A stretch of DNA of 64,000 nt from a virus. The notes beneath the pieces were generated by a model, which saw nothing but the letters and a program-made list of their open reading frames with translations, had not been told where the DNA came from and made no database searches. The stretch lies in IMG/VR virus record IMGVR_UViG_3300005096_000103, positions 64,001-128,000 of that record. The stretch is one strand, 5' to 3'. Both the position numbers and the translations under genes were made by a program. This document shows positions 7,551 through 59,332 of this stretch, in pieces (position 1 is the first letter of the stretch; every line of letters begins with the position of its first letter).

Positions 7551-7572
7551 AGCTTAGAGTGCGAGGCGACCT

Positions 7573-11604: not shown

Positions 11605-11613
11605 GGATAGAAA

Positions 11614-13318: not shown

Positions 13319-13350
13319 GTTGACCTGTAGCATATGATCTGGAGCATAAG

Positions 13351-16221
13351 TTGACTACCTACGAGAATGTTAATACCCCTCAAGTTAATGATTACCTAGT
13401 CTATATCTGCGGTGTAGAGGTCCCTGTATCAGCAGTAAGCGTACGTGGAGCCGTCTGGGATATTCCTACAGCAACGATACAACTACCTGCTGACAAAAAT
13501 CTAAGGCGTATAGGTGCTGAAGATCGTATAAGGGTTACGATATTCTACTTAGACACTGTATATTACGACGGTGTCTACTGTCTTATGTTCGATGGAGAGG
13601 TGACATCTGTAGGGTACTCGTCTTCAGCTATGACAGCACTGCTCTCTCTGAATTGTAGAGGCTTCGCTGCAGCATTCGAGAGGCTTAAGCTCTTATTCTT
13701 AACAGCGATGCCTAATTTCGTTAAAGCGAGTACTGGTAATCCAGATGCGGATGCAGTTGTCGCAGGCGCAGCATACTCTAAGATCTTCCCAGCCTCACTG
13801 TTCTATAGTGGACTATCACCCTCCGCAAATGAGCCTCTTACCCGCCCTTTTGATATCGTGAATAACGTATTCAAAGTCGTTGCTGGTATAGAGATGTCAC
13901 CACCTGAGCTACTAGAGTCTCTGTCTAAGGACGACGACACTGCGACGCCGAATGATACTAAATCCGTTGTCGCTACACATTGGTTTAACAGGTGGCTACG
14001 ACGGACTAACTTTATCAACATGTGGAATCCTCTACCAGGCTACGAGACTTCGTTCACGGACACAGACTCTTTATTCCCTGTCTTGAGCGTCATACAGCAG
14101 AACGAGGCTATTAACGCCCTTATAAAGATGGCTTCAAATATCGGAGATAGTGGGAGTGTCTGGGAGCTTGTTAGAAAAGTATTCATGACACTATACTACG
14201 AAGTCAATATAATGCTCAGCCCACCAGCTGTAGCAGTCAAGTCTAGTAGCCTAAAAGTCCGGGGACCCTTTTCAACTAAGATAGGTAATGACCGTCTTAA
14301 GATCTTAAGTCACGTGACTAAACCTCAGATGCTATTTGGAGTTCCACCTGCGTGCAATATCCTCTGGAAAAGTCTGATAACTAACACCTCTTATAGTGAA
14401 GACTATGCAGGTCAGCCTACTCGACTCCGCGCCTCATTTGGCCAACACTCAAATATCTACGCACCGAACGGCGGCAATAAGAACCCTGGGTCTCAAGAAA
14501 TCTTGAACCAAGTTATGGCGGTTGCGTTCCCACCTATAGCACAGTATCAACTCGATCAACGCGTAGGACGTGCAGATAAGGAAGGTGACTTCTCTCGTAA
14601 CGCCCACAATTTTCTAGTCTGGCCTGAGGAGTTCTTCAAAGGTCCAGTCTCCTCCTACAGAGAGATACCCCAGTGGTTCCACTTTCTAGCTAACGCGCAG
14701 AAAGCTCCTGCAGTACTCGGTGTAGCAGCTGACTTTGCGTCTCCGAGGTCATACCTGCTAGGTCTCGGTACTCTACTAAACACCATATTAAGTACAAACT
14801 CCTCAATCTATAAGGATCAATTCCCTCTAGAGATGATTGAGGGTTTTATAGAAGCTGCTGAGGCTCTGCCTACTAAGGTTAGAGAGTATGGGACTAACGT
14901 ATCATCAGCTCGAACAGGAGGCTACGACGAAAGCCTTGCTACGCTTAAAGACTACTACATAGGCGTCCTAGAGCTAGCTAAGCAATTCAGCCCACAACTC
15001 TCTAGCATCTCTCAGATAGACAAGTTTATCAGCGCGATAGACGAGGCGACTGTATCAACGAGAGTTACAGTGTCAGAGCCTGGCATAGCTGAGCCTCCTG
15101 ACGCTGAAGCTACTCCTGATCTAGCTACCCCTACTGAAGCTTCAGTAGCCTCAACAGAAGGTGACGATGCGACCCGTGAAGTCTATAAGCTCTACGCAGC
15201 TTATGAGTACCATAGAGAACGCTACTCACGCCGGAACGGGTCAGTTAATATGGTGTTCAACCCCTACGTGGCTGCTGGATACCCTGGTGCAGTATTCGAT
15301 AAGGACGCCCTACAATACCACCAGTTCATGTACGTCGTCTCTGTAAACCATAGTATGTCGCCTAACGGATTCAGCACGTCAGTGTCTTATTCGTATGCGA
15401 GGACATTCAATGAGTTCTTTCAAGAGCTGTTAGAACTTAGAAATCCTGACTCTTTTGCGCGTGTTGATACGTCTACGGATCAGGTATCTGGAGCCAGGAT
15501 CGAAGATAAGCTTTCCGACCTAGCTAGTTCCGTGCCTGCTACTGACTTCTTAATAGAACCTGGATTTTCTGACGTACCAAAGAAAGTGTTCGACACTCGT
15601 AACATCAGCGACTTCTTACAGGACCCTAGTCTACTCAAAGAAGAACCTTTAGACGCGGGACCTGCTAACCCTATTGAGAGCTATCGGAACGGATTCCAGC
15701 GTAACTCAGGCGCGAGGGCAATCTACGACAGTCTGTTCTGGCAGAACCTCCCTAGAGACGCTGACAAAGATACGATATTCGACTGGGCTAAACTCCTGTC
15801 TGTATCTCCAGGAGGTATGAACCCACAGGATATCGCATTAACAACTGAGAGTGCACAAGACTATAAAAATCCATCAACAGAGTTCCACCCCACTAAGGAC
15901 GCTCAAATATTTAATAACTCAACGCGTGATGGACTTAAGTACTGTGCCCGCCCTGTATGCACTCTAGAGGAGTGGATGACACACAACGCGTCCATAGGGG
16001 TTGCTAAGGATAAACTTATCGTAGAGACGCAGGGACACTTAGTCTCGTACTATGTTATGGTACTAAACTTAGAGGCTGGACCAGGGAAAGAACCGGCACA
16101 GACTGAGTTAGGTAATAGGGTCGGGGAAGTTACAGCAGATACCCGACTCCCTTGGGTTTCGTATCTGCTCCGCTATAGAAACAGGATCTATAATAGAGAT
16201 TTCCCACTAACGACTACCTAG
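13351..16221 (+). CDS. Baseplate hub-like protein (gp27/gp44-like, inferred)
   Basis: 956 aa; N-terminal YLVYICGVEVPVSAVSV..W...ATI and FDGEV pattern typical of hub proteins; position between tape measure and wedge. Confidence 0.55.
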   Translation: MTTYENVNTPQVNDYLVYICGVEVPVSAVSVRGAVWDIPTATIQLPADKNLRRIGAEDRIRVTIFYLDTVYYDGVYCLMFDGEVTSVGYSSSAMTALLSLNCRGFAAAFERLKLLFLTAMPNFVKASTGNPDADAVVAGAAYSKIFPASLFYSGLSPSANEPLTRPFDIVNNVFKVVAGIEMSPPELLESLSKDDDTATPNDTKSVVATHWFNRWLRRTNFINMWNPLPGYETSFTDTDSLFPVLSVIQQNEAINALIKMASNIGDSGSVWELVRKVFMTLYYEVNIMLSPPAVAVKSSSLKVRGPFSTKIGNDRLKILSHVTKPQMLFGVPPACNILWKSLITNTSYSEDYAGQPTRLRASFGQHSNIYAPNGGNKNPGSQEILNQVMAVAFPPIAQYQLDQRVGRADKEGDFSRNAHNFLVWPEEFFKGPVSSYREIPQWFHFLANAQKAPAVLGVAADFASPRSYLLGLGTLLNTILSTNSSIYKDQFPLEMIEGFIEAAEALPTKVREYGTNVSSARTGGYDESLATLKDYYIGVLELAKQFSPQLSSISQIDKFISAIDEATVSTRVTVSEPGIAEPPDAEATPDLATPTEASVASTEGDDATREVYKLYAAYEYHRERYSRRNGSVNMVFNPYVAAGYPGAVFDKDALQYHQFMYVVSVNHSMSPNGFSTSVSYSYARTFNEFFQELLELRNPDSFARVDTSTDQVSGARIEDKLSDLASSVPATDFLIEPGFSDVPKKVFDTRNISDFLQDPSLLKEEPLDAGPANPIESYRNGFQRNSGARAIYDSLFWQNLPRDADKDTIFDWAKLLSVSPGGMNPQDIALTTESAQDYKNPSTEFHPTKDAQIFNNSTRDGLKYCARPVCTLEEWMTHNASIGVAKDKLIVETQGHLVSYYVMVLNLEAGPGKEPAQTELGNRVGEVTADTRLPWVSYLLRYRNRIYNRDFPLTTT

Positions 16222-16234
16222 CTTTGGAGCTACC

Positions 16235-17341
16235 ATGCTTACAGACGATCTCGTAGAAAAAATGGCTAAGCTAGGTAAACAACGTTCTACACCTGTACCC
16301 TCTGGCTACCCTGTCAATCTATCGTTCGAGCTGAAGATGGCTCGTATCGCTAACCTGTTGAAGATGCCCTCTATCCCTAAGATCCCTAACGTCGTAGGAT
16401 CTTCTACTAAGGGTCTCGGGGACTCGGTATCTGCTTCAGCAAAGTCATTCTCTGCAAGTTCATTATCTCCAAAGTCGTTATCACCTAAGACTAACTTTAA
16501 GCCTATTGCAGCTCCTAAGCCTAAGCTACCTGCTACAGCGTCTAGCATAGCACCGGCAAAGAAACTGCAAGGTGGTAGTGCAGACTGGACCGCATCGGTA
16601 AAGTCAGCAAAAGTTACAGAAGTAGATGTCTTTAAGCTCACTAGGAAGCAAAAGGATATACAGCTGTGGAAGGACTGGAAGCACAGTGGACATAAGCCTG
16701 GAGCATTAAAGCCGCTGATGTCTGCGCTAGCCCCTGTTATTTTTAGCCAGACTAAGATGTGGAAAGGTCAAGTTCCAGACTACGCCCTAGATCGTACAGC
16801 TCAAAGCCTGGCGCTCAAAGCATTGTATAGTTACGACCCTAATAAAGGCGCGGCGCTCAATACACACGTAACAAATGGTCTGCGTAAGATAAGCAGGACC
16901 GTCTACCAGAACCAAGATATTATAAGACTACCTGAAGATAAAAAGCTTGAGAGTCAAGCCATCTTCAAATCAACTCAGGCTCTAGAGGACGAGCTAGGAC
17001 GGACGCCTTCCGATATGGAACTAGCCGATGATCTAGGGTGGAATGTCAATAAAGTCCGAAAGTCACAGGGACTCGGGGTTAACGAGTTGGTATCTAGTCT
17101 CGATGCAGGTGGTTTGTCTTTAGGGGATAATGGCGACTCTGATCGTAAACTGCGTGATACGATACATTACGTATACGCGGGATTACCTCCTACTGACCAA
17201 GTCATCTTTGAGCATTCAACTGGGTTTAGCGGAAAGCCTCGCAAGACAGCACTGCAGATATCTAAGATGGTTAAGATGTCACCTGGGCAAGTTCACCAGC
17301 GTAAGAAATCAATAGCTGATATGCTAAAGAAGGTGATGTAA
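16235..17341 (+). CDS. Sigma70-family RNA polymerase sigma factor with about 125 aa low-complexity N-terminal extension
   Basis: YDPNKGAALNTHV..GLRK (region 2), LEDELGRTPSDMELADDLGW (region 3), LPPTDQVIF..TALQISKMVKMSPGQVHQ (region 4 HTH). Confidence 0.8.
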   Translation: MLTDDLVEKMAKLGKQRSTPVPSGYPVNLSFELKMARIANLLKMPSIPKIPNVVGSSTKGLGDSVSASAKSFSASSLSPKSLSPKTNFKPIAAPKPKLPATASSIAPAKKLQGGSADWTASVKSAKVTEVDVFKLTRKQKDIQLWKDWKHSGHKPGALKPLMSALAPVIFSQTKMWKGQVPDYALDRTAQSLALKALYSYDPNKGAALNTHVTNGLRKISRTVYQNQDIIRLPEDKKLESQAIFKSTQALEDELGRTPSDMELADDLGWNVNKVRKSQGLGVNELVSSLDAGGLSLGDNGDSDRKLRDTIHYVYAGLPPTDQVIFEHSTGFSGKPRKTALQISKMVKMSPGQVHQRKKSIADMLKKVM

Positions 17342-18127
17342 GTGCAACGTACAGTGTTTAAAGGTCCACCTGAGAAGAGGGTTAGGGTTAAAAACCTAGG
17401 GATCTTAACAAAGACGGATCCTAGAGCTGTACTACTAGACGCTAAGCTGCGCGGTGGTGGTAGACAGTGGCTCCACTGGAGAGCTGCGACTAAGTTAGCC
17501 CAGTTGCTACAAGCCGCGTGGTCTGTAACCCCTGATCTAAGGGCAGTGTCCTGTCTAAGAGACCCAAAGAAAGATACTAAGGAAGAGTGGATAGCTAAGA
17601 TCAAAGCCTTTGACATTACGCCATCAGCCAGAGCGCCTAACGGTCCTAGAAAATACTGGAAGGTGACAGATCAAACAGAAGATCAATCTAGGAAACGGTT
17701 ATTCAGATTCAGAGCGTATAACAGTGGTCACGAAACCGGGCTATCTGTTGACTTTGCGTCTAGGTCAGAGGGTCTAGGGACCAACAGTAAACGTATCCAC
17801 TTTTATAGGGGTACACAGGTTTACGCGTGGCTAGCTTCCAACGCTATTAACTACGGGTTCACACCTTATAATAACGAACCGTGGCATTGGGAGTTATTCC
17901 TAACTCGCAAAGAATGGTTAGAGCTGCCTGACGGCGGATTCGTGATGCCAGACGCTTATGCGGCTAGAGCTACAGGCTTTAGTAGCGTCACACGTTATGA
18001 CGCCTATCAAAGTGCAAAAGACCCTCTAGCTGCAGACGTTCCTCTCGATAAAAAAATAGTTTACAAGATAGACCACGTACGTAGTATCGGAAAACTCTTT
18101 GACTTTGACTTAAACGTCTGGAGATAG
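17342..18127 (+). CDS. Peptidase M15 / VanY-like zinc peptidoglycan peptidase
   Basis: SGHETGLSVDF (SxH..G.A.D type) and NEPWHWE motifs. Confidence 0.75.
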   Translation: MQRTVFKGPPEKRVRVKNLGILTKTDPRAVLLDAKLRGGGRQWLHWRAATKLAQLLQAAWSVTPDLRAVSCLRDPKKDTKEEWIAKIKAFDITPSARAPNGPRKYWKVTDQTEDQSRKRLFRFRAYNSGHETGLSVDFASRSEGLGTNSKRIHFYRGTQVYAWLASNAINYGFTPYNNEPWHWELFLTRKEWLELPDGGFVMPDAYAARATGFSSVTRYDAYQSAKDPLAADVPLDKKIVYKIDHVRSIGKLFDFDLNVWR

Positions 18128-18168
18128 AATAGTGTATACTGGACTCCTTTTGAGGGGAGTGTGACACC

Positions 18169-18612
18169 TTGGCAAATACAAAAGACGACATTTGGGTTAA
18201 CCTATTTAGTGACGAACTCAATCAGGTGCAGTTCTCCTTTGGGTTAGGGGCGGGAGAGATACAGCGTGTATCAGGTAAGACACGCGTGCTTATGCAGTGG
18301 GTCAAAGTCCTTATGACCCGCCCAGGCTCTAATATCTTTGATCTTAACTACGGTACAGTGTTCAGCGAGCTTGTAAACTCTAATACTTCTGACGACGCAT
18401 ACGCTCGTGAAGTTGGAGCGGCTGGTATAGACCAGGCAACGGCAATTATAAAAAAGAATCAGTTAGGTAAGAGTTTCCCTGCAGGTGAGCGTCTAGAAAA
18501 CCACGAACTCCTCTCATTCGAAAAGTTGTCTGATACGAGCGTGTCCTTCATCGTGTCTCTCGTAAACGAACTCGGTGAGTCTATGTTGGTTGGCATTAGA
18601 ACAGGAAGTTGA
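18169..18612 (+). CDS. gp25/GPW-like baseplate wedge subunit
   Basis: About 147 aa; VLMT.PGSNIFDLNYGT and C-terminal beta pattern; precedes the baseplate J-like gene. Confidence 0.75.
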   Translation: MANTKDDIWVNLFSDELNQVQFSFGLGAGEIQRVSGKTRVLMQWVKVLMTRPGSNIFDLNYGTVFSELVNSNTSDDAYAREVGAAGIDQATAIIKKNQLGKSFPAGERLENHELLSFEKLSDTSVSFIVSLVNELGESMLVGIRTGS

Positions 18613-18615
18613 TAA

Positions 18616-21090
18616 ATGGCCACTGTAACGTTATCTGCGTCTGACATACAGAAAGCTGAAGAGTTTGTAGCTAGCTTCTTAGCAGCTGAAAACCCTGATG
18701 CTGACTACTCTAAAGGTTCAACCCTCCGAGATCTCGCGGTACGCGGTATCGCTATCTCATATGCGTACCTCACCTCACTATCTGATAAGGTACGCACGCT
18801 CTCAAGAATCAAAGAGATAGCTGTTATCACTGACGATGAAGAGCGTGCTGAGGCTATAATCAATTTCTCAGCTAACTTCTTTCTCACGCCACGAGCTGGT
18901 CGATACGCCCAGGGTTTAGTAGATATCTACTTTGATAAGCCCGTGTTTGGTGTTGTACCTAGCGCGTCTATATTCACGTTCAATTCTACGATTAACTACG
19001 TCCTTAACAACTTAGGTCAGCCACTAATCTTTGACACTGGAGATCTGACTACCGTATCCGTAGGTTTAGGGGGCAATACTCAGGTCCTGTATACGCTTCG
19101 TGTCCCTATCATAGCACTGAAAGTTGGAACTAGCTCACACATCGTTCCTCAAGTAGCTAGCAACTTTACTAGATTTCTCGCTGAAATAGTAAAAGTCGAA
19201 TCTATAGAGCCTATCACAAACGGTAGTGACGTTGAAGATGCTGATGTTTTCTTAGAGCGGATCCCTAACGCAATAACTGTAAGGAATCTACTGACTGAAC
19301 GTTCAATAACTACAGTTCTCACAGAAGGTTATCCACAGATAAGCTCACTCACTGTCATCGGCGCTGAAGACAGTGAGATGACTCGGGATATATCTCCCAT
19401 CTCCACAGAAGCTTTACCAATACACACAGGTGGTTCTGTAGACATTTTTGTTGATACTGGGATCATCACTACAGTATTCGAGGGTCTTATAGGTTCTCCA
19501 GCTACAGAGCGCTCCCCCTTGATTACAGTCTTCCGTGACTTACAGCTTATCGATATGGGAGTTGACTGGCGTGGTATGGTCGAACCAGGGGATACACTAC
19601 GAATCTACAATACTGAGGGGTCTGAGCCTAGCCTCTATCTAATACATAATGTTAGCGGTTACTTCCTCAGAGTCCAGGACCTCTTGCCGTTCAAGACGGC
19701 CAGGCCTGTAATCCTGCATAACGGAACCCGCTATGAGGAGTGTACACTCGTTGTTGCGACACTTATACTTACAGTCCCCTATACAAAGTTCACGAGTAGT
19801 GACATCGGTAACTTTGTATACCTCTGGGCTGCGGGTGATGCCTACTACAAAGAGATCAAATCCATCGTCAATCTGACCAGTCAAGGTTATGGGGACGTAG
19901 AACTAATTGACGTTGAAGGCGACCTCGCTACGTTTGCTACTAGTGGCATATCTGTGAGTGCATATGACTCTAAGGTCGAGTACTCTATTGGAGACGATGC
20001 TCCTACATACGCTAATAAGATGAGCAAGCGAGACTTTGGCCAGATAACTCGTAGTTACTTCTCGCCTGATGGAGTTATACTTACCGGGCTCCCAATATAC
20101 AAGATACACAGTGTAACACTCGTAGATACCACAAATCTTGCTGCATCTGCCGAAGTAGGTGGGGCGTCATTCGTAACTAGAGTTAATGTTCCACCAGAGA
20201 TGAAAGCAGATAAGACGCTCAACTATGAGTATCAAGCTATCAGCTTTGCCCCTAACTACCACCAGTCTACTAAAAGCTCGACACTAATACGTGTAGGCCC
20301 TGTGGACTCTAGAGGTGGCAACCAAGGCTCACTCGCTGTAACGAATGCTGCAACTCGGCAGGGCGTCTTTTCTAGTTTAGCTCCTGACTTTACTGTAGCA
20401 GACGTAGGCCTTGAGATCCTAGTGACCAAGGCGTTCAACCCTGGAAACGCAGGGCTTTATACGATTGATAGTGTCATAGACTCTAAGAACGTAAACGTAA
20501 CTAAAAACTCAAGGCACTATGATCCTGATGCTTTGGCTAATGAGATAAACTTAACCTGGGAAGTTATCGCGTCTAGTCGCGTTAGCGGATTACTACGTGT
20601 TACCTACGACACACTGAGTAACTTTAGTAGCCTGGCTGCATACGTTCAAGATTCTCCAGATCGTGTTGTAGCCTCAAGCCCGTTAGTTAAAGGCTACCAC
20701 CCTGTCTACCTTAGCATGAGCTTGAACTACACTGTTAAGACTGGTGAAGACCCGCCTGACGAAAATCAGATGAAAGCCAGTGTTGTAGACTTCGTAAACA
20801 ACTTCCTGGCTACTGACGTACTCAACGTAGGAGATATTACTAGCTACCTACGTCGGGCATTTACGAGCATAGGAAATATACTGCAACCTGTTAAAGTGGA
20901 CTACACGCTATACTCTCCCACAGGGGATGCTATCGTGTTCACTACCTACGACATAGTTGAAATATCCTCTACTAGTCTACTCTCTGCTTCGGACAGCGCA
21001 CTCTACTCCCTCGCTAAGAAATACGGGGTTAGTGATCGAACTGTGAGATATGTCTGTACCCGCAGTGACATCTCCCTCCTGAAGGTGTAA
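18616..21090 (+). CDS. Baseplate J-like wedge protein (gp6-like)
   Basis: DYSKGSTLRDLAV, ITNGSDVEDAD..L.R, ITVRNLLTERSI, GG.VDIFV motifs. Confidence 0.75.
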   Translation: MATVTLSASDIQKAEEFVASFLAAENPDADYSKGSTLRDLAVRGIAISYAYLTSLSDKVRTLSRIKEIAVITDDEERAEAIINFSANFFLTPRAGRYAQGLVDIYFDKPVFGVVPSASIFTFNSTINYVLNNLGQPLIFDTGDLTTVSVGLGGNTQVLYTLRVPIIALKVGTSSHIVPQVASNFTRFLAEIVKVESIEPITNGSDVEDADVFLERIPNAITVRNLLTERSITTVLTEGYPQISSLTVIGAEDSEMTRDISPISTEALPIHTGGSVDIFVDTGIITTVFEGLIGSPATERSPLITVFRDLQLIDMGVDWRGMVEPGDTLRIYNTEGSEPSLYLIHNVSGYFLRVQDLLPFKTARPVILHNGTRYEECTLVVATLILTVPYTKFTSSDIGNFVYLWAAGDAYYKEIKSIVNLTSQGYGDVELIDVEGDLATFATSGISVSAYDSKVEYSIGDDAPTYANKMSKRDFGQITRSYFSPDGVILTGLPIYKIHSVTLVDTTNLAASAEVGGASFVTRVNVPPEMKADKTLNYEYQAISFAPNYHQSTKSSTLIRVGPVDSRGGNQGSLAVTNAATRQGVFSSLAPDFTVADVGLEILVTKAFNPGNAGLYTIDSVIDSKNVNVTKNSRHYDPDALANEINLTWEVIASSRVSGLLRVTYDTLSNFSSLAAYVQDSPDRVVASSPLVKGYHPVYLSMSLNYTVKTGEDPPDENQMKASVVDFVNNFLATDVLNVGDITSYLRRAFTSIGNILQPVKVDYTLYSPTGDAIVFTTYDIVEISSTSLLSASDSALYSLAKKYGVSDRTVRYVCTRSDISLLKV

Positions 21091-38134: not shown

Positions 38135-38166
38135 AGTCTACTTCGCTGTTCACTCTAGCGATTCTC
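38123..38166 (+). terminator. Perfect 15 bp inverted repeat over the mazG stop
   Basis: GAGAATCGCTAGAGT / ACTCTAGCGATTCTC with 14 nt loop; weak U tract. Confidence 0.55.
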
Positions 38167-38208
38167 TCTGTTTCGATAGCATAGCACGAGCTATCAGACA
38201 CAAACACT

Positions 38209-38266
38209 GGTACCCGTACAACCATTAACTGGTATTTACCGTGGAGTGTACGGGTACCCTCTTTTT
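38209..38266 (+). terminator. 12 bp stem with large loop and T tract
   Basis: GGTACCCGTACA / TGTACGGGTACC followed by CTCTTTTT. Confidence 0.6.
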
Positions 38267-38305
38267 AATTAAGACCTCAGACGACTCTAAACATCTATAC
38301 TAAAC

Positions 38306-38314
38306 TGGTATAAG
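38306..38314 (+). promoter_or_regulatory. TGGTATAAG extended -10-like motif
   Basis: Intergenic, after a terminator and before the 38419 gene run. Confidence 0.65.
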
Positions 38315-38418
38315 AGTGTAAGAGTATTTCTAGACGAGGGTTGGATTGTTGTGTCAGGTAATTAGACCTGGCACTCAAGCAGTCTTGACTCTCTTTTAGC
38401 AACTAGGAGCTTATCGTC

Positions 38419-44004: not shown

Positions 44005-44027
44005 GGGAGATAAGCCCTACCTTTAAT

Positions 44028-44036
44028 TGGTATAAG
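44028..44036 (+). promoter_or_regulatory. TGGTATAAG extended -10-like motif
   Basis: Intergenic, upstream of the 44148 gene. Confidence 0.65.
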
Positions 44037-44147
44037 ATAGTGTACGTATCATCTACGTATAACTACGCGACACTCTAACGTCTTACTTGCCCAATAAGGG
44101 GTTTAAAAGTTGAGACTATGTCGCAAGTCCCTTAGGAGGGATATACT

Positions 44148-45062: not shown

Positions 45063-45088
45063 TCTCCTGCCTTTCTTCTCGCCTTCTC

Positions 45089-45133
45089 GGCGTCTACAGT
45101 TTTCAAAAACTGTGGGCGCCTTCCTCTCTTTTT
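45089..45133 (+). terminator. Rho-independent terminator
   Basis: GGCGTCTACAGTT / AACTGTGGGCGCC stem then TTCCTCTCTTTTT. Confidence 0.7.
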
Positions 45134-45158
45134 AGCTGTGCTAGCCTAGCTAAATACC

Positions 45159-45167
45159 TGGTATAAG
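45159..45167 (+). promoter_or_regulatory. TGGTATAAG extended -10-like motif
   Basis: Directly after a terminator, upstream of the 45391 gene run. Confidence 0.65.
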
Positions 45168-45231
45168 AAGGCAATTGGAACCTATGTATATTATACCTCT
45201 ATAGGGTGCTTAATTGTGGCTTCCGCGAAAC

Positions 45232-45303
45232 CTACCGATGTCGCTACCGATGTCGCTACCGATGTCGCTACCGATGTCGCTACCGATGTCGCTACCGATG
45301 TCG
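45232..45303. repeat. Perfect 12 bp x6 tandem repeat
   Basis: CTACCGATGTCG repeated six times exactly. Confidence 0.98.
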
Positions 45304-45390
45304 TAGGTGCTACGCCAGGTAGACTCTTTACGTAGTAATAGAGGCACCTTATATTAACCTTATATTAACCTTAACTTAGGAGACAAAACA

Positions 45391-49926: not shown

Positions 49927-49954
49927 TAGCGAGACTACTAGGAGAGGGTATGTT

Positions 49955-50116
49955 ATGGCGACACAAAGCGCGCTCTACAAAGAAAAACTTGAAGAAGCCC
50001 TTGAGGCTATTGAAGCCGGCGAACCAGCTTGGCGTGTGTCAGGCTGGTTTGAAGGCAAACACTACAACTGCTTTGGTCGCGGATCTACTGCACTTAAGGC
50101 TCTGAGAGACATGTAG
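49955..50116 (+). CDS. 53 aa hypothetical protein (below the ORF-track cutoff)
   Basis: AGGAG SD; MATQSALYKEKLEEALEAIEAGEPAWRVSGWFEG... Confidence 0.6.
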   Translation: MATQSALYKEKLEEALEAIEAGEPAWRVSGWFEGKHYNCFGRGSTALKALRDM

Positions 50117-50187
50117 TCTTCAGTGGTAGCTCTGAGAGATCACTGAGTTCGTGGAGTCTGTTAGAGTGGGATTCTAAAGCATAAACT

Positions 50188-50196
50188 TGGTATAAG
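50188..50196 (+). promoter_or_regulatory. TGGTATAAG extended -10-like motif
   Basis: Intergenic, upstream of the 50298 gene run. Confidence 0.65.
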
Positions 50197-50297
50197 CGGG
50201 TAGTGAAAACTTTACAAGCAGGCATATCTTCTATCTAATGTGGATAGTTGTTGTGCTTGCTTATTTTTTAGTAGCGAGACCTACTAGGAGGGAACCA

Positions 50298-53722: not shown

Positions 53723-54349
53723 ATGAAAATCTCGGTAGAAACCTTATACAAGCTCAACATTCAAAATGGTCTTATTTACGTCGACTTATTCAAGGATCAC
53801 TTCCCTGAGGGGTGGGATGGTGAATGGACGGCAATGTGTCAAGCTGTTTTCCTAATGAATCCTGATCTCGCAACTACCTGGAGCCGGCTTTGCAATCTTG
53901 GACTCCTACCCCGTTATAGTATGGCGGGTTGGAACCTCCAAAACGTTAACCTCAGCCACGTTGACCTACGCGGCGCAAATCTAAAAGGGGCAGACCTTCG
54001 TGAAGCTAATTTCAGCTACGCAAATCTCGACTACGTTGACCTGAGTGGTGCTGACCTGCGAGGCGCTAGATTCATCGGAGCCACTCTACGTAGGACTAAC
54101 CTCCATAGCGCTAACCTCAGTGTTAACCCTGCAGGTGTAGGAGCTGACATGACCGGAGCAGATCTTAGCCATACAGACCTCGCGTGGGCAGATCTACGAG
54201 GAACACGATTCCGTGGCGCTAACCTGAGCTACGCTGACCTAAATAATGCAGATCTAAGAGGTGCTAACCTCACAGCTGCCAACCTTACATGCGCTAACCT
54301 TAATGATGCGCTCCTTGCTTCAAGCAGAGGAATAGATGGAAACTTTTAA
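53723..54349 (+). CDS. Pentapeptide repeat protein
   Basis: Long run of A(N/D)LxG/A pentapeptides after a unique 60 aa N-domain. Confidence 0.95.
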   Translation: MKISVETLYKLNIQNGLIYVDLFKDHFPEGWDGEWTAMCQAVFLMNPDLATTWSRLCNLGLLPRYSMAGWNLQNVNLSHVDLRGANLKGADLREANFSYANLDYVDLSGADLRGARFIGATLRRTNLHSANLSVNPAGVGADMTGADLSHTDLAWADLRGTRFRGANLSYADLNNADLRGANLTAANLTCANLNDALLASSRGIDGNF

Positions 54350-54557
54350 AATTCTTAAGAGTCTTAAGAGTCTTAAGACTCTAGTCACCCCCCTCTTTAG
54401 CGCGATGAGTGGGCTCCTAATCTGGTATGTTATAGGCGGCATAGGTATTGTAGGTATGGGTAGCGGCGTAGGGTGTGGACCAGGGTCATTCATGCTGGGC
54501 GCTGCTATTGCCGGAGTCGTTGTCACGTCAATATGGAAAAGTCGTAAGGAGTCCTAA
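54336..54557 (+). CDS. Small two-TM membrane protein
   Basis: Two Gly-rich hydrophobic segments; LKSLKSLKT repeat. Confidence 0.65.
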   Translation: METFKILKSLKSLKTLVTPLFSAMSGLLIWYVIGGIGIVGMGSGVGCGPGSFMLGAAIAGVVVTSIWKSRKES

Positions 54558-54558
54558 C

Positions 54559-54879
54559 ATGGAAAAGATATGCACAGCATGCGGGTCAATCGGAAGGTCT
54601 AAGACACTAACAAAAGGTAGCTTCATTCTAGAGCTAATTCTGTGGGCTATGATGATACTGCCGGGTATGTGCTACACCGTATGGCGTCTTACAACGAGAG
54701 GTCCGGTATGCTCTAAGTGTCTCAGCCCTAATTTAGTACCTCTATCGAGTCCGATGGGTCGGAAACTTCAAGCTGACTTTCTAGAAATGGAGTCTGCGGT
54801 GAAGAAGGTAGAAGATACGATCGCAGAAGATAAAGAAGCCCTTGAAGATGGGATGAATAAGCTAGGAACTAAAGAGTAG
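54559..54879 (+). CDS. Zn-ribbon protein with TM hairpin between CxxC pairs
   Basis: ATG 54559 after AGGAG; CTACG...ELILWAMMILPG..Y..WR...CSKC. Confidence 0.75.
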   Translation: MEKICTACGSIGRSKTLTKGSFILELILWAMMILPGMCYTVWRLTTRGPVCSKCLSPNLVPLSSPMGRKLQADFLEMESAVKKVEDTIAEDKEALEDGMNKLGTKE

Positions 54880-55372: not shown

Positions 55373-55633
55373 TCAACTCACCGCCTTAGCGTAAGATACC
55401 ATCCTCCTTAAAAAAGATCCTGTATTTCTTGCGGCTCTAACACCTCTTGCGCCTACAATACCAAGGCTAGTCAAGCCAACTAGACCTCCCCCGCCTATTA
55501 TGAGCTTCTGAGTTGTAGACACACCATTTCTGCCCTTAGAGTCTTGATGGCTCATTGCAACTTTTAGGCTGGAGGTTTCAGCGTTGTAAGCGTTTTGATA
55601 GGCTAGCTTGACTAAGCTTTGTAGGTTGTACAT
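55373..55633 (-). CDS. KLAY-leader family small basic protein 6
   Basis: MYNLQSLVKLAYQNAYNAETSSLKVA plus Gly-rich hydrophobic helix and Arg-rich tail. Confidence 0.8.
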   Translation of the reverse strand: MYNLQSLVKLAYQNAYNAETSSLKVAMSHQDSKGRNGVSTTQKLIIGGGGLVGLTSLGIVGARGVRAARNTGSFLRRMVSYAKAVS

Positions 55634-55642
55634 GATGGTCTC

Positions 55643-55924
55643 CTAGACTGCCTTCTTAATAACTTTAGCAGCTGCTGCTGCTGCTGCACCCATAGCAGAC
55701 TTAGACTTGAGTAACTTTTTTGCGGATCGTCGTGCTGCTAATGTTGCAATCCCAATACCGGCTGTAGTCCCTACGACTCCTTGGCCAATGGTTTTAAAGA
55801 GGCTATCTGATTTAGTTACGAGTCCGTCGATTCCGCGGTGCTTAAGTGCAATCTTTACACTGTCAACGTAGTCGTCGTAGGCGTTTTGATAGGCTAGCTT
55901 GACTAAGCTCTGGAGGTTGTACAT
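55643..55924 (-). CDS. KLAY-leader family small basic protein 5
   Basis: MYNLQSLVKLAYQNAYDDYVDSVKIA plus amphipathic Lys/Ala tail. Confidence 0.8.
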   Translation of the reverse strand: MYNLQSLVKLAYQNAYDDYVDSVKIALKHRGIDGLVTKSDSLFKTIGQGVVGTTAGIGIATLAARRSAKKLLKSKSAMGAAAAAAAKVIKKAV

Positions 55925-55951
55925 CTTTTTTTTTAGCTCCCAAGAATGTTG

Positions 55952-56545
55952 TTATAGTACTTTGGCTACGTTCTTAGCAACACTTGCTAGAACCTTCTCA
56001 GCTTTTAGAGCTGCTGTACCCTTAGCTGCAATGTTAACCGTTTTGTTTACTGTACTAGGGACTGCTTTTGCTGCGGCGTTAGCTGCTACGTTAAGTGTCT
56101 TAGCTTCGCTCCTAATACCCGCTTTGGCTGCTGCGGCGCTAGTAGCTCGCTGCTTACTTACTGTCTTGTATAAGTCCTTACCTAAATCTCTCACAGTGTC
56201 CACGCCGTAGCCTAAGCCCTCACGCGCCATAGTTGGTATAGCTGAGAGACCTTTAGCCTTCCCTAGTCGTGAGTATCTCTTAGCTAAATTCGTCTTTGCA
56301 GATGTACCACCTAGAAACTTCTGAGCTATTGCACCAGTTCCTACTAATCCAGTTCCTGCAACTAGGCCTCCCCCTCCTGCAGCTAGTCCTGCTGCTGCAA
56401 TTCCAGCACCTGAACTTCCTTTACGGCGAGGTACAGGCAAATGTGCTGCGATTTTATTTAGCTGGGAGGCTAGCGCACCATATTCCTCGTTATACGCAAT
56501 TGTGTATACACTAGCTAGGCATTTCTTATGTGTGTCTGTGTACAT
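55952..56545 (-). CDS. KLAY-leader family protein 4 (divergent leader)
   Basis: ...VYTIAYNEEYGALASQLNKIAA plus glycine zipper and Lys/Ala-rich tail. Confidence 0.8.
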   Translation of the reverse strand: MYTDTHKKCLASVYTIAYNEEYGALASQLNKIAAHLPVPRRKGSSGAGIAAAGLAAGGGGLVAGTGLVGTGAIAQKFLGGTSAKTNLAKRYSRLGKAKGLSAIPTMAREGLGYGVDTVRDLGKDLYKTVSKQRATSAAAAKAGIRSEAKTLNVAANAAAKAVPSTVNKTVNIAAKGTAALKAEKVLASVAKNVAKVL

Positions 56546-56569
56546 CTATCTTCCCTAAGTAAGTCGCCA

Positions 56570-56989
56570 TTACATCTGAGCTAAAGCAGCGCGGAGATTA
56601 CGTCCCCTCTCAAAAGATATATCCCCCTGGAGCTCTGAGACTGTATCTCTAACCACAGACTTATTAGCGCCTCTAGCAGCGCGTAATCCTGCACCAGCCC
56701 AGTCGTCTACGACGTTGAACGCTTTGCGCATCCCACGACCTACCCCGTAAGTCAGACCTATTGTCGCTGCTGTTCCTGCCGCCGCGATTCCTAAGCCTTT
56801 TGCGACGCCACCCATAGTAACAGGTCCAGTCTGTGTGGGTATTGGTGGTCGCATGGGTGGCATCAGCGCCTGTGCCTGGCTGTGCATAGCGACTTTAGGG
56901 CTCGACGGGCTAGCTAGTCGAATCCGTCGGACCTCTTCAGCGTATGAACGTTGATACGCCAGTTTTACTATGTAATCTAGGTCATTCAT
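56570..56989 (-). CDS. KLAY-leader family protein 3
   Basis: MNDLDYIVKLAYQRSYAEEV...KVA plus GLGIAAAGTAATIGLTYGVG. Confidence 0.8.
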   Translation of the reverse strand: MNDLDYIVKLAYQRSYAEEVRRIRLASPSSPKVAMHSQAQALMPPMRPPIPTQTGPVTMGGVAKGLGIAAAGTAATIGLTYGVGRGMRKAFNVVDDWAGAGLRAARGANKSVVRDTVSELQGDISFERGRNLRAALAQM

Positions 56990-57008
56990 TCATATACCCA
57001 TAGGTACG

Positions 57009-57410
57009 CTAAGTTACAGCCTTAACTACAGTCTTAGCAGTATCAGCAGCAGCAGCTAGAGCTTTGCGTTTCTTTAGTGCGTTCATGATAGTATAACCTG
57101 TAGACGCTAAGAGTCCGCCACTTAAACCATCTACAATGCGGTTATCAAGAGTACCTTTACGTCTACTCACGTACTCTGTTACCTTTTCACCAGGGAGCAT
57201 CTTAGCACGTATATGCCTGGCTTGCTTCCCTCTATCACCAATCATATGCTTTAAGTTGTAGATTTCCTTCGCCGTCAGCTTAGACGACACGCGTTTAAGC
57301 GACTCGCGAATCGTAGCGTCTCGTTTACGCGGATCAGCGTTCTTAATCGCTGCCATCTCTTTGTTGTACGCTTCGGAGTAGGCGAGCTTTACTAGGTGCT
57401 GTAAATTCAT
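57009..57410 (-). CDS. KLAY-leader family protein 2
   Basis: MNLQHLVKLAYSEAYNKEMAAIKNA plus a highly basic body. Confidence 0.8.
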   Translation of the reverse strand: MNLQHLVKLAYSEAYNKEMAAIKNADPRKRDATIRESLKRVSSKLTAKEIYNLKHMIGDRGKQARHIRAKMLPGEKVTEYVSRRKGTLDNRIVDGLSGGLLASTGYTIMNALKKRKALAAAADTAKTVVKAVT

Positions 57411-57538
57411 CTTTTAACCCTTTATAGCCTTGAAACTAAATTCACACCCTTACGAAGTAGGTTCTAGTGGCCTACTTCGTTTAGACGTTGAGGAGACTCT
57501 ATTAATCTATATACCCGTCTGACGCCGGGACCAGTCGT

Positions 57539-57901
57539 CTATGCGTTCCTTAAGAGGGGTACACCTATAGCTGCAAATTCGTCCAGTCGACGCTGCGTCC
57601 GTGAAGGCGCTGACGCTGCGTCGACTACTTCCCCCGCGACATCCCCTACAGCGTCGACTGCAGCTCCACCAGCTTGACGGAGCCCTCTGCCTTTAAGGTA
57701 GCGACCTCCTAAGTATAGCGCACCTGCGCCCATAGCTAGACCGCCTAGACCTGCACCAACCTGCGCTCCTAACCCAACTTTAGCTGGAGTGCTTAGGCCT
57801 TTGTCTTGTCCTTCCTGACTGAAGAATCCTGCAAGTTTAGCAGACTCTTCGTTATAGGCTTGCTGGTATGCTAGCTTCATGTGGTATTGCAGGTTGTTCA
57901 T
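57539..57901 (-). CDS. KLAY-leader family protein 1
   Basis: MNNLQYHMKLAYQQAYNEESAKLA plus VGLGAQVGAGLGGLAMGAG; GAGGA SD. Confidence 0.8.
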   Translation of the reverse strand: MNNLQYHMKLAYQQAYNEESAKLAGFFSQEGQDKGLSTPAKVGLGAQVGAGLGGLAMGAGALYLGGRYLKGRGLRQAGGAAVDAVGDVAGEVVDAASAPSRTQRRLDEFAAIGVPLLRNA

Positions 57902-57962
57902 CCAATTCCTCAGTTCTAAACCACTCTAAGATCAGACTCTATAGACTCTAGATCCACCTCAA

Positions 57963-57991
57963 AGACTAACAGCCTCACAACCCTTCGTCAA
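57963..57991 (-). promoter_or_regulatory. Sigma70-like promoter for the KLAY cluster
   Basis: TTGACG-N17-TAGTCT with TGn extension, 55-60 nt before ATG 57901. Confidence 0.6.
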
Positions 57992-58008
57992 TGTCGCCTC
58001 CCGCCCTT

Positions 58009-58037
58009 TTGACGTCACCGGCATCAGGGTGTAAGAT
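58009..58037 (+). promoter_or_regulatory. Sigma70-like promoter for the glycine-zipper gene
   Basis: TTGACG-N17-TAAGAT, about 65 nt before ATG 58103. Confidence 0.6.
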
Positions 58038-58102
58038 GTCTTGACGATGTAGAGCTTCTATAAACTACAAGATTCTAGAACTTTAACACAGGGGAAATAA
58101 TT

Positions 58103-59332
58103 ATGGGACTTAGGGAAACTGCTAGAAACAATACTATCGCAGGTGGAATTGCGGGTGCGGGGTTTGGCGGCCTTGGTGGTGGACTCAAAGCTTTCCGACG
58201 TGGAGGGGGTCTCGCTGGAGCGGGCCTCGGTGTCTTAGGTGGAGGTCTACTAGGTGGTATCGGAGGTGGTATCGGAGGTGGCATCACTGCAGGTGTCTCA
58301 CACGCAGTAGGTAACGGCAACCTCGGATATGCACAACAGGCTGGTGGTGACGCAATTCTTGGAGGCATCCTCTCTGCGCCCCTTGGCGCAAAGGGTGCAC
58401 TACTAGGAAGTGCACTAGGTGGTGGGCAAGGTGCTGCTAGGGAGTATATTAGGCAGAAGATCTCGGCTAGTCAGGGGCTTGGAGAGGCTATTGGTGAGAA
58501 CGCTATTGCAGGAGGTCTTGTAGGCGCTGGAATTGGAGGTCTCGCTGGTGGGGCTCGGGCCATACGGGCTGGTGGTGGATTAGCTGGTGTAGGTCTAGGC
58601 GCCTTAACCGGCGTTTTAGGTGGTGGGATTGCAGGTGGAATCGGTGGAGGCATAGTCGGTGGAGGGCTGAACGCTGTTGGGAAAGAGGAGGGTTATAGAG
58701 GTCAAGTTGCAGGTGGTGCACTACTCGGTGGACTCTTAGCAGCGCCTTTTGGCCCGCAAGCTGCACTAGCAGGTGGCGCACTAGGTGGTGGGCAAGGCGC
58801 TGCTAGGGAGTACGTCAGGCAGAAGATCTCGGCTAGTCAGGGGCTTGGAGAGGCTGTAGTGGAGAACGCTGTTGCAGGCGGTGTGGGCAATGGTGTAGTC
58901 GGAGGTTTAACAGGCGGAGCACTTGGCGCACTAGGTGGTGGTCTTGGGGGTTACTTCGTGGGCAGAGAGGAGAAAAAAGTAGGCCCTGTGCTAGGGGCCC
59001 TATTAGGCGCAGGTCTCGGCGCGGGAGCCGGCGCACTAGGCGGGACGGCGTTAGCTTCAGGTCTAGGTGCACTTGAAGGCGCTGGTGCTGGTGCAATGAT
59101 GCACGCTGCAGGTGTAAAGCCTAACTACAAAAACCAGATGCTTGCGAGTGCAGGTATCGGTGGTCTTTTAGGCTTGTCGGGTGGAGCTTTAGCACCCATT
59201 ACCGTTCCAGTATCTGCGGCTACAGGTTCTCTAAATGGGATACCTCGCGAGTATGCACGTCGAGTACTCTACAAAGAGTCGTCTTATAGATCTGAGGGTC
59301 TTAGTGCTGCAGAGATGTGTGGATTCCGCTAG
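58103..59332 (+). CDS. Glycine-zipper protein made of three ~122 aa repeats
   Basis: Continuous GxxxG helices; each unit ends in REYxR; 78 bp DNA repeat at 58412 and 58778. Confidence 0.85.
   Translation: MGLRETARNNTIAGGIAGAGFGGLGGGLKAFRRGGGLAGAGLGVLGGGLLGGIGGGIGGGITAGVSHAVGNGNLGYAQQAGGDAILGGILSAPLGAKGALLGSALGGGQGAAREYIRQKISASQGLGEAIGENAIAGGLVGAGIGGLAGGARAIRAGGGLAGVGLGALTGVLGGGIAGGIGGGIVGGGLNAVGKEEGYRGQVAGGALLGGLLAAPFGPQAALAGGALGGGQGAAREYVRQKISASQGLGEAVVENAVAGGVGNGVVGGLTGGALGALGGGLGGYFVGREEKKVGPVLGALLGAGLGAGAGALGGTALASGLGALEGAGAGAMMHAAGVKPNYKNQMLASAGIGGLLGLSGGALAPITVPVSAATGSLNGIPREYARRVLYKESSYRSEGLSAAEMCGFR

Follow-up and report, generated by a model that had tools for sequence, protein, structure and literature searches.

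Six tandem genes of an uncultured phage, here called the KLAY genes (K1 to K6), were found to join one conserved N-terminal leader to six dissimilar, small and basic cargos. Judging from their sequences, we lean towards viewing the KLAY proteins as analogues of the T4 capsid-targeting sequence (CTS)/internal proteins, taken up into the virion and processed by a protease. The capsid-internal, protease-processed reading explains the genes best because the conserved leader stands on divergent cargos and contains the probable motif of the prohead protease.

The KLAY array and its genomic setting

The source phage has a 138-kb genome with direct terminal repeats and is a lytic-type or virulent-type element. 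The window analysed is a stretch of 64,000 nucleotides of this genome (positions 64,001 to 128,000 of IMG/VR record IMGVR_UViG_3300005096_000103). A sequence-only reading of the window had listed six tandem minus-strand genes of 86-197 aa, and all six ORFs were recovered in place, as shown in Table 1. The array sits in the accessory region of the genome, surrounded by small genes without assigned function, and further Gly-rich or TM-like small proteins are encoded next to it (54336-54557, 54475-54879 and 58103-59332).

Shine-Dalgarno-like GGAG/GGG sequences lie upstream of each of the six genes. The gap between K5 and K6 holds a hairpin (57452-57480) of ten perfectly paired bp and a 9-nt loop, without a U-tract, and the gap as a whole folded no better than shuffled sequences (z = -0.28). 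The divergent intergenic region upstream of K6 is presumed to be the promoter region of the array; it had no motif in common with other operons, and neither scans for promoters and terminators nor k-mers common to upstream regions revealed a (late-promoter) motif linking the array to virion operons. Note that GC and AT skew were inverted over 56-58 kb, as expected from minus-strand coding.

Table 1. Positions of the KLAY genes and associated features in the window (residue numbers refer to the encoded protein).
Feature	Position	Strand	Remarks
K1	55373..55633	-	86 aa; pI 10.8
K1 leader	residues 1-26, nt 55556-55633	-	K9-L-A and K24-V-A; HMM E 8e-23
K1 Gly-rich segment	residues 44-62, in the cargo	-	
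K2	55643..55924	-	93 aa KLAY protein
K2 leader	residues 1-26, nt 55847-55924	-	
K2 extra K-x-A sites	residues 75 and 90	-	
K3	55952..56545	-	197 aa; 6-residue N-terminal insertion; TIAY replaces KLAY; HMM E 1e-13
K3 second site	N-K31-I-A	-	retained
K4	56570..56989	-	139 aa KLAY protein
K4 leader		-	8-residue insertion ahead of second site K32-V-A
K4 Gly-rich segment	residues 65-84	-	
K5	57009..57410	-	133 aa KLAY protein
K5 leader	residues 1-25	-	K8-L-A and K23-N-A
K5 hydrophobic segment	residues 95-112	-	weakest among the six
Intergenic gap K5/K6	57411..57538	-	sole sizeable gap within the array
K6	57539..57901	-	120 aa; first gene of the array; 17% Gly
K6 leader	residues 1-24	-	K9-L-A and K22-L-A-G
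Divergent intergenic region	57902..58102	.	between K6 and a 409-aa Gly-rich gene

A leader conserved as a peptide on dissimilar cargos

The leader follows the pattern M-x-x-L-x4-KLAY-x-x-AY, an acidic patch and a second K-x-A, with M1, L4, A11, Y12 and Y16 invariant in the alignment. As had been described, five genes carry KLAY and one carries a degenerate form, namely T-I-A-Y in K3, and every leader has D/E residues downstream of the AY block, with the second K-x-A at residues 22-32. Both K-x-A positions were kept despite indels, and the joint composition-based null probability of a second K-x-A in 7/7 leader genes (including the seventh copy described below) was ~1.5e-5. The reported near-identity of two gene starts was reproduced for K1 and K2, whose first 44 nt are identical at 42 positions, with both differences synonymous. 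In all pairs other than the recent pair K1/K2, codons were scrambled: of the 4-11 codons that encode the same residue, only 1-4 were identical. Since residues were retained while codons were scrambled, selection acts on the leader as a peptide.

In an AF2 model of K1, residues 4-35 were helical, with pLDDT of 67-75 across the first 20 residues; as the model was built on a six-row alignment and reached an overall pLDDT of 52, only the N-terminal helix is usable. A leader HMM run against the six-frame translation of the genome recovered the six array genes (E 1e-13 to 1e-23) and, beyond the array, one marginal N-terminal match (genome 9753-10403). In an unbiased all-versus-all comparison of N-terminal 40-mers, the KLAY family was the largest set by far.

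Once the leaders were stripped, no pair of cargos was significantly similar (best E = 0.17 in a nine-sequence database), in line with the description of the downstream parts as unalignable. The cargos are basic, as had been noted (whole-protein pI 9.0-10.8), and each contains a single uncharged, Gly-rich stretch (~18-33 residues) with basic residues on both sides. The C-terminal amphipathic ending that the sequence-only reading called frequent was seen as an AK.V/KAV-type ending in 4/6 cargos. K-x-A was absent from the Lys/Ala-rich cargo of K3 (zero versus 3.9 expected, P = 0.008); such avoidance was significant for K3 only (pooled P = 0.11).

The Gly-rich segments with their basic flanks, one per protein, could also belong to small non-virion membrane proteins with a role in the infected cell, such as holin/antiholin-like, superinfection-exclusion or envelope-remodelling proteins, whose N-terminus would be an uncleaved cytoplasmic amphipathic helix for oligomerisation or regulation and whose K-x-A would be incidental. 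The Gly-rich and TM-like neighbours of the array suit this possibility, as do the residues that follow the leader K-x-A sites (Y, M, L, A, M, D or G), which are mostly not S/A/G. However, the best 19-residue hydropathy of the KLAY proteins was 0.8-1.8, borderline for a transmembrane helix, and the best Kyte-Doolittle mean over 19 residues was as low as 0.8-1.4 in 5/6 proteins. Lysis or exclusion genes would not usually come as six paralogs with a further copy in a baseplate operon, and both K-x-A positions survive indels. Relatives moreover show the combination of tag and Gly-rich part again in their structural block, as do abundant virion proteins of phage Arash (see below). We consider this explanation unlikely.

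The KLAY family is confined to one genome

Comparison of the six KLAY proteins with Pfam (E <= 1) and PHROGs returned noise only: no leader or bacteriocin family of Pfam was matched, and neither database linked the proteins to Gly-zipper families (Gly-zipper_Omp/YMGG, Rick_17kDa_Anti) or holins. A word-indexed search of 5.8 billion proteins with K6 and with a six-protein profile found proteins of the same genome only, and an exhaustive leader-HMM search of 1.84 billion protein representatives found only the six proteins themselves. Note that a 41-position profile misses diverged short leaders at that database size, so that the result speaks for uniqueness of the strict KLAY motif and not of the tag class. 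The leader profile had no match in the whole genomes of Arash, Vibrio phage D69 and 26 IMG/VR relatives; the leader-HMM scan that the sequence-only reading had proposed thus yielded the six array genes and a marginal seventh in the genome itself, and nothing among the representatives or relatives. A degenerate DNA pattern gave ten matches in IMG/VR, all out of frame or stop-filled and close to chance expectation. No related locus was found with single KLAY proteins, blastn of the array region against cultured phages gave no match, and the best K4 look-alike in the ESM Atlas scored 0.82, under the meaningful level. By these sequence searches, the KLAY proteins form an orphan family, restricted to a single metagenomic genome.

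These searches also bear on the competitor-killing branch of the sequence-only reading, in which bacteriocin-like secreted peptides would lose the leader on export and the diversified, membrane-active cores would hit competitors. A conserved leader with variable, cationic and Gly-rich cores does resemble class II bacteriocin precursors. However, neither leader nor core matched any Pfam, PHROG or other family, the KLAY leaders do not end in a Gly-Gly cleavage motif, and the scanned window neighbours, large ORFs and structural region contained no gene for an ABC transporter/C39 peptidase, for immunity or for modification, in agreement with the remark that the window shows no transporter or modifying enzyme. 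The element is moreover a virulent-type phage with one leader copy in its baseplate operon. This branch therefore falls away as very improbable, while the other branch proposed for a sorting and cleavage leader, that of capsid-internal, protease-processed proteins, gains circumstantial but convergent K-x-A evidence.

K-x-A is the probable cleavage motif of the prohead protease

The genome encodes a prohead protease (genome 23458-25497) with invariant H130 and S183. Its sequence gave only noise against the PDB, and the Foldseek E-values of its fold were weak, so that the match needed structural realignment; realigned, the model of the protease domain (core pLDDT >90) matched T4 gp21 (5jbl_B) with Z = 10.0 and rmsd 3.2 over 137/164 residues, followed by herpesvirus assemblins (Z 5-6.5).

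In the head module around the protease, K-x-A-[SAG] occurred 37 times versus 9.6 +/- 2.9 expected, a count reached in 0/200 shuffles, whereas the rest of the genome had 43 versus 38. Local enrichment near the protease recurs in four relatives: Salmonella phage Arash, where gp220, gp223, gp225 and the protease gp222 were enriched (z = 3-7), Vibrio phage D69 and the IMG/VR relatives G001 and G003. In the 22-kb head/tail loci of two closer relatives, the proteins enriched in the motif are all encoded in the head block, upstream of the major capsid protein (MCP), and the tail genes contributed none. Site positions were conserved among orthologues only 27-36% identical. Specifically, K-E-A was found at residues 27-32 of the MCP N-terminus in 5/5 genomes read, three K-x-A sites of a scaffold-like protein align between orthologues, and one site directly precedes the catalytic domain of the protease. 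Among 34 protease homologues, K52 and A54 ahead of the domain are invariant or at least 90% conserved, and K303 is invariant within a consensus K-x-A-A-L after the domain. The motifs [LI]-x-E and [SAG]-x-E were not enriched in head or KLAY proteins. On the basis of the head-specific enrichment, the conservation at the MCP N-terminus and the sites flanking the protease domain in the 34 homologues, K-x-A-[SAG] is probably the maturation cleavage motif of this lineage.

The KLAY proteins share features with the products of the head module. The first K-x-A falls within 35 residues in 6/6 KLAY proteins, 10/15 head-module proteins and 10/123 other proteins, and among the products of the head module are small proteins of pI 10-11.4 that combine an N-terminal K-x-A with Gly-rich segments and are of one class with the KLAY cargos. 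Two findings speak against packaging and processing of the KLAY proteins: the residue after the leader K-x-A sites is mostly none of the S/A/G favoured in head proteins, and across whole KLAY proteins K-x-A-[SAG] was not enriched (2 observed versus 3.7 expected). A predicted complex of protease domain and leader scored 0.00, which is evidence neither way.

A seventh leader copy in the baseplate block

The array was described as one of six, and six genes it has; the family, however, has a seventh member outside it. A seventh leader, MDTASLIKLAYANAF...EKAAS, begins a gene in the tail/baseplate block (genome 9750-10391) and aligns with KLAY in register (N-terminal BLAST E = 9e-5). This copy is probably the ancestral family member. 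The gene and its orthologues lie between baseplate-block genes in at least 18 genomes. The positional orthologue in G001, which starts MRRPFLEKIAIED, repeats its own leader internally, right after K-Q-A-S, and G001 has a second leader-bearing paralog within the same block. Slot genes of relatives mostly encode basic proteins with a short start peptide that ends in K-x-A, followed by a Gly-rich part; K-x-A lies in the first 15 residues in 12/18 relatives versus 7.4% background (p about 3e-10, the relatives being not fully independent). In the closest relative, the N-terminus of a head protein (MSISATKLAYARG) resembles KLAY too loosely to count.

The location of the probably ancestral copy among baseplate and not head genes is a point against packaging in the head, as tail proteins are not normally exposed to the prohead protease. 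The KLAY proteins might instead be tail or baseplate virion proteins, located in the lumen or acting as pilots and released to pierce the envelope, with the leader as a tail-assembly docking tag; the slot shared by at least 18 genomes and the second G001 paralog are in favour of this. Any processing would fall to another enzyme, such as a DUF2201-type putative metallopeptidase (window 417-2060), and a K-x-A-rich gene (genome 63264-64340) does adjoin a putative metallopeptidase/VWA gene. However, K-x-A goes with the prohead protease itself, whose domain it flanks at conserved sites in 34 homologues, with the MCP N-terminus and with scaffold-like proteins. In most proteins of the tail block K-x-A is scarce or missing, and gene position does not fix virion location. 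We regard a tail assignment as improbable.

Proteins of similar design in Arash virions

Arash and oyster Vibrio phages belong to the lineage, together with more than 360 contigs of IMG/VR. Arash (OQ632216) is 36% identical to the present phage in MCP, 34% in protease and 35% in RNAP. Its proteins gp95c, gp96c, gp97c and gp100c are basic, Gly/Ala-rich and encoded outside the structural operons, and are abundant in purified virions (406, 816, 1060 and 471 spectra, respectively, versus 1333 for the MCP; PMC10585845 Table 2). Note that the Arash virion proteome of 116 proteins includes obvious non-structural enzymes, so that detection there is a weak discriminator (PMC10585845). MCP coverage in that dataset was 86.6%, which is compatible with propeptide loss and not diagnostic. 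Arash gp95c starts with MSLHKLAK...LKAAP and continues with a Gly/Ala segment and a basic tail (PMC10585845); its K-L-A at residue 5, charged helix and K-A-A at residue 24 precede the Gly/Ala segment, an order like that of the KLAY proteins. The likeness is in design only, with no significant sequence similarity, and, unlike the KLAY proteins, the four Arash proteins have no common leader among themselves.

Comparison with known systems

In T4, basic internal proteins are brought into the core by propeptides of 10-19 residues, which gp21 removes; IPII and IPIII have an identical CTS, and cargos diverge between relatives (PMC9026906). The KLAY array resembles this system (IPI, IPII, IPIII, Alt) in that a short N-terminal peptide is common to otherwise dissimilar small basic proteins, the leader contains what appears from sequence to be the motif of the phage's own protease, that protease has the gp21 fold (Z = 10 to 5jbl), the genes are clustered with fast cargo turnover, and two members (K1/K2) have near-identical leaders, as IPII and IPIII do. 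Unlike the T4 CTS, the KLAY leader has no similarity to MKTYQEFIAE, is longer (~24-34 residues) and has two candidate sites, and the presumed motif is K-x-A, with assemblin-like Ala at P1, in place of L/I-x-E. The KLAY cargos also differ in their Gly-rich uncharged segments, one family member lies in the baseplate block, and the phage is of an unrelated, Arash-like lineage whose virions contain a multisubunit RNA polymerase. Given the lack of CTS similarity and of L/I-x-E enrichment, KLAY is an analogue and not a member of the T4 family. The term "undescribed system" holds for the orphan protein family but is overstated for the design, since T4 already joins a shared cleavable leader to unrelated, small and basic proteins in its CTS/internal-protein system (PMC9026906).

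The phiKZ-like giant phages phiKZ, 201phi2-1 and SPN3US have ejection or inner-body paralogs whose N-terminal propeptides are cut by gp175/gp245 (PMC10052503, PMC5694885). Head-internal paralog families processed by a gp21-related protease would be a likeness to the predicted fate of KLAY proteins, and both groups have a virion-packaged multisubunit RNA polymerase that needs ejection; propeptides of 20-24 residues (SPN3US gp45, gp225) are comparable to the KLAY leader. However, the (S/A/G)-x-E or A-x-E motif of that group was not enriched here, there is no sequence homology, the present genome is only 138 kb, and phiKZ-group paralogs align over their full length, whereas KLAY cargos do not.

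To our knowledge, assemblins do not use N-terminal targeting tags on cargo proteins. Herpesvirus assemblin sites read (V/L)-x-A followed by S and are cut after Ala, as in VQA-S (PMC4498786). The protease described here has the same superfold, its sites likewise flank the protease domain and occur in scaffold, and the cut would likewise follow Ala with a small residue next; unlike in assemblin sites, Lys at P3 is specific to the present motif.

Proposed function and significance

In the explanation that we prefer, the six genes would be a lineage-specific expansion of small basic Gly-zipper-type proteins that become part of the virion, most likely within the head. The ~25-residue N-terminal helix would act like a T4 CTS and dock the precursor into the assembling prohead core, and the gp21-fold protease would then remove the leader by cutting at or beside K-x-A. 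The freed basic cargo (~60-165 residues) would stay with the DNA and exit the capsid at infection. We thus infer K-x-A to be the cleavage site, the leader to be a targeting tag and the KLAY proteins to be present in virions. As for the role of the cargo after ejection, one may speculate that it inserts into membranes or forms a passage for DNA and the large virion RNA polymerase, as the Gly-rich uncharged segments suggest, or that it neutralises the charge of DNA, as the basic pI suggests.

A wider and more tentative proposal is a hitherto unrecognised "address and cut" code of the whole, widespread lineage, in which a short N-terminal hydrophobic-x-K-[L/I]-A tag, cut by a gp21-fold protease of assemblin-like K-x-A specificity, would load Gly-zipper proteins that form a trans-envelope conduit for DNA and the ~250-kDa virion RNA polymerase. 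In the present phage the tag would have become a portable module that gave rise to a six-gene, fast-evolving arsenal, with the leader serving also as a recombination handle for cargo swaps.

As the family is an orphan in one metagenomic genome and the general design is known, the advance is incremental and not conceptual. If the preferred explanation is true, KLAY would be a second and mechanistically distinct case of capsid targeting by a tag, this time beyond the T4 group and cleaved by an Ala-specific code, and it might be used as a tool to package foreign proteins into phage particles. The K-x-A-[S/A/G] rule would predict maturation sites, scaffold-like proteins and packaged cargo in a large, barely studied lineage of RNA-polymerase-carrying phages. 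The cargos would be candidates for ejected membrane-active small proteins, and their fast diversification could reflect an arms race at the host envelope.

The KLAY Array, Its Leader and Its Cargos

Six KLAY genes (K1 to K6, K6 being first in the array), each joining a shared leader of about 25 N-terminal residues to a divergent cargo, lie head to tail as tandem minus-strand ORFs of 86-197 aa, as the sequence-only reading had described. Each ORF is preceded by a Shine-Dalgarno-like sequence, and the strand composition of the region agrees with minus-strand coding. The proposed leader stood in its framework, M1, L4, A11, Y12 and Y16 being invariant in the alignment of six, but KLAY itself was present in five; K3 reads TIAY there and carries an insertion of 6 residues. 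Every leader also has the predicted acidic residues and second K-x-A, at residues 22-32 after the AY-x-x-x-Y block. The first 44 nt of K1 and K2 were, as claimed, identical at 42/44 positions with both differences synonymous and abrupt divergence beyond, reflecting recent duplication or leader-confined gene conversion. The other paralogs share leader residues but not codons, indicating that conservation acts at the peptide level. Residues 4-35 were modeled by AF2 as helical with moderate confidence, and nothing was reliable past that.

No cargo pair was significantly similar once the leaders were removed, and the basic design noted earlier was recovered (pI 9-10.8, a single uncharged Gly-rich segment each, often a C-terminal AK.V/KAV ending). 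The K3 cargo, with its 18 Lys and 36 Ala, nevertheless avoids K-x-A (P = 0.008); pooled over the KLAY cargos, K-x-A avoidance was not significant. The general design is that of T4 capsid-targeting sequence (CTS)/internal proteins, and it is scarcely credible that these are bacteriocin-like peptides.

Small Gly-rich or membrane-like proteins are clustered here: the array, the 409-aa gene and the 73-aa and 134-aa genes (see the table) lie close together. The 409-aa protein (about 30% Gly, pI 9.9) gave no family match; it has eight uncharged Gly-rich segments, with a unit containing GGQGAAREY[I/V]RQKISASQGLGEA present twice, and the Pro-rich ORFs opposite are its mirror image. A perfect 10-bp inverted repeat (9-nt loop) within the array lacks a U-tract, and folding around it was no better than for shuffled sequence. 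Plus-strand genes are repeatedly preceded by an extended -10-like decamer, TGGTATAAGA (or TGGTATAAG), a candidate host-sigma-70 early promoter that was absent upstream of the KLAY array.

Coordinates of features in the whole 138,359-bp record (genome), the window or a relative
Feature	Coordinates	Strand	Remarks
Tail/baseplate block	genome about 3300-19800		reciprocal comparison with Arash
MCP (major capsid protein)	genome 19889-20806		reciprocal comparison with Arash
Protease	genome 23458-25497		reciprocal comparison with Arash
RNA polymerase	genome 33570-40585		reciprocal comparison with Arash
Portal	genome 42652-44415		reciprocal comparison with Arash
K-x-A-enriched head module	genome 20890-35972		outside window; loci L007, L006
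Slot gene	genome 9750-10391		213-aa product
G001 slot gene	G001 124352-125197		locus L141
K-x-A-rich 358-aa protein	genome 63264-64340	-	divergent neighbor of putative metallopeptidase
Putative metallopeptidase	window 417-2060	+	DUF2201-type, VWA domain
Sigma-70-family protein	window 16235-17341	+	42% identical to Arash gp10
Pentapeptide-repeat protein	window 53723-54349	+	Pfam E = 1.5e-37; few genes from array
73-aa protein	window 54336-54557	+	Gly-zipper-like, hydrophobic; just upstream of array
134-aa protein	window 54475-54879	+	CxxC...CxxC, hydrophobic helix; just upstream of array
KLAY array	window 55373-57901	-	K1 at lowest coordinates
Inverted repeat	window 57452-57480	-	between K6 and K5
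409-aa protein	window 58103-59332	+	divergent from array
-10-like decamer sites	window 38135-38418, 44005-44147, 45063-45390, 49927-50237; genome 1669-1987		

Lineage of the Phage

The IMG/VR virus record, whose bases 64001-128000 make up the window, bears direct terminal repeats and codes for a class II ribonucleotide reductase, a DinG-type helicase, a 679-aa protein weakly matching head-maturation proteases and, within the virion operon, a two-gene multisubunit RNA polymerase. The closest cultured relatives by tblastn were Salmonella phage Arash and Vibrio phages D69, D148 and D181, and head and tail genes were assigned by reciprocal comparison with Arash. Arash gp10, the relative of the sigma-70-family protein, was found in Arash virions together with RNA polymerase subunits (PMC10585845). 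Protease homologues numbered more than 300 in metagenomes (40-64% identity) and 363 in IMG/VR, many on 150-200 kb contigs, which places the phage in a large, essentially unstudied lineage. Four long homologues (P0050, P0107, P0110 and P0115; 950-1015 aa) carry Hint/intein and LAGLIDADG domains, which are inteins within the prohead protease gene of relatives.

K-x-A as a Putative Maturation Motif

In 15 head-module proteins, K-x-A-[SAG] occurred 37 times against 9.6 +/- 2.9 expected, in the context K-(L/I/V)-A-(S/A/G), with the rest of the genome at chance; the T4 and phiKZ motifs were not enriched in the same test. Local enrichment around the protease was repeated in Arash, D69 and the IMG/VR relatives G001 and G003, and in two closer relatives (22-kb head/tail loci) every motif-enriched protein mapped upstream of the MCP gene, within the head block. 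Lineage-wide head-module specificity of K-x-A-[S/A/G] covers Arash, D69, G001, G003 and loci L163 and L164. Orthologues sharing about 30% identity kept the positions of their sites: in 5/5 genomes read, K-E-A stands at MCP residues 27-32, and a scaffold-like protein has three aligned sites common to its orthologues. The first K-x-A fell in the first 35 residues of 10/15 head proteins, 6/6 KLAY proteins and 10/123 others.

In 34 proteases the catalytic domain is bracketed by K52-x-A54-(S), directly in front of it, and K303 (consensus K-x-A-A-L), behind it. The confident model of this domain matched T4 gp21 (Z = 10.0), followed by herpesvirus assemblins, whose cleavage falls after Ala, as in VQA-S (PMC4498786). 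The most economical explanation is that K-x-A is probably the cleavage site of this protease clade, suggesting an undescribed specificity for a gp21-fold prohead protease. Such cleavage would mean that head proteins are made with N-terminal propeptides and that scaffold-like proteins are fragmented, as described for T4 and SPN3US (PMC9026906, PMC10052503).

Elsewhere, the 358-aa protein contains 8 K-x-A (2.7 expected), and its pairing with the putative metallopeptidase is conserved in G001; the two may represent a further protease with its substrate, or else an additional head component.

Likeness to Virion Proteins

Several small proteins of the head module (pI 10-11.4) have an N-terminal K-x-A and Gly-rich segments and belong to the same class as the KLAY cargos. 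In Arash, gp95c, gp96c, gp97c and gp100c cluster outside the structural operons and have a KLAY-type design, the likeness being architectural only: gp95c reads MSLH-KLA-K, charged helix, L-KAA-P, Gly/Ala segment and basic tail, and gp97c has K-G-A plus Gly-zipper units strung together. These four were present in purified virions at 406-1060 spectra, comparable to MCP, in a very inclusive proteome of 116 proteins (PMC10585845). Beside these likenesses, it is unlikely, at perhaps one chance in five, that the KLAY proteins are non-virion membrane proteins.

Origin of the Array

A leader HMM, built as had been proposed and run on the six-frame genome translation, matched only the KLAY genes and, marginally, the slot gene (the slot being its position in the tail/baseplate block). 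Searched exhaustively, 1.84 billion representatives yielded no leader beyond the six proteins, word-based searches of 5.8 billion proteins returned only these six, each on a single contig, and the leader motif was absent from 28 related genomes. In an unbiased comparison of all N-terminal 40-mers with one another, the K2 and K1 N-termini paired in register with the slot product (E = 9e-5), a seventh leader that starts MDTASLIKLAYANAF, with E-K-A-A-S at residue 32. The neighbors of this gene on either side are the Arash gp236 and gp237 orthologues.

In exactly the same slot, G001 has a gene that starts MRRPFLEKIAIED (27% Gly), in which the leader plus Gly-rich unit is tandemly duplicated inside one ORF. 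The internal leader starts directly after a K-Q-A-S site, so the product resembles a small polyprotein with a putative built-in processing site. A G001 paralog three genes off starts MYKRRPFLEKLAQDDF and runs on into a Gly-zipper. The slot was then read in 23 relatives, anchored on the conserved downstream gene. K-x-A lay in the first 15 residues of 12 of the 18 usable slot genes, compared with 7.4% of all proteins, and the majority were Gly-rich and basic; that of the relative G011 starts MDKATYNLIHKLAGDGED and is visibly KLAY-like. These tags indicate that the lineage probably inherited a short hydrophobic-x-K-[L/I]-A tag plus acidic patch on Gly-rich proteins from its ancestor, and that the KLAY array arose as its local expansion.

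Discussion

The best-supported reading of these sequence comparisons is that the KLAY array would be a T4-CTS-like system, in which precursors would be docked into the prohead by their leader helix and then freed of that leader at K-x-A by the gp21-fold protease, and the basic Gly-rich cargos would stay in the particle for release at infection. Its main weaknesses are that atypical residues follow the leader K-x-A sites and that the probably ancestral gene sits in the baseplate block. A tail-associated role with processing by another protease is improbable, given roughly one chance in seven, and a slim chance is left for something unforeseen. On the CTS-like reading, what would be new is the lineage (Arash-like, RNA-polymerase-carrying), a putative Ala-type cleavage code, a Gly-zipper cargo class, and an array whose origin may be traced to a conserved structural-block gene.
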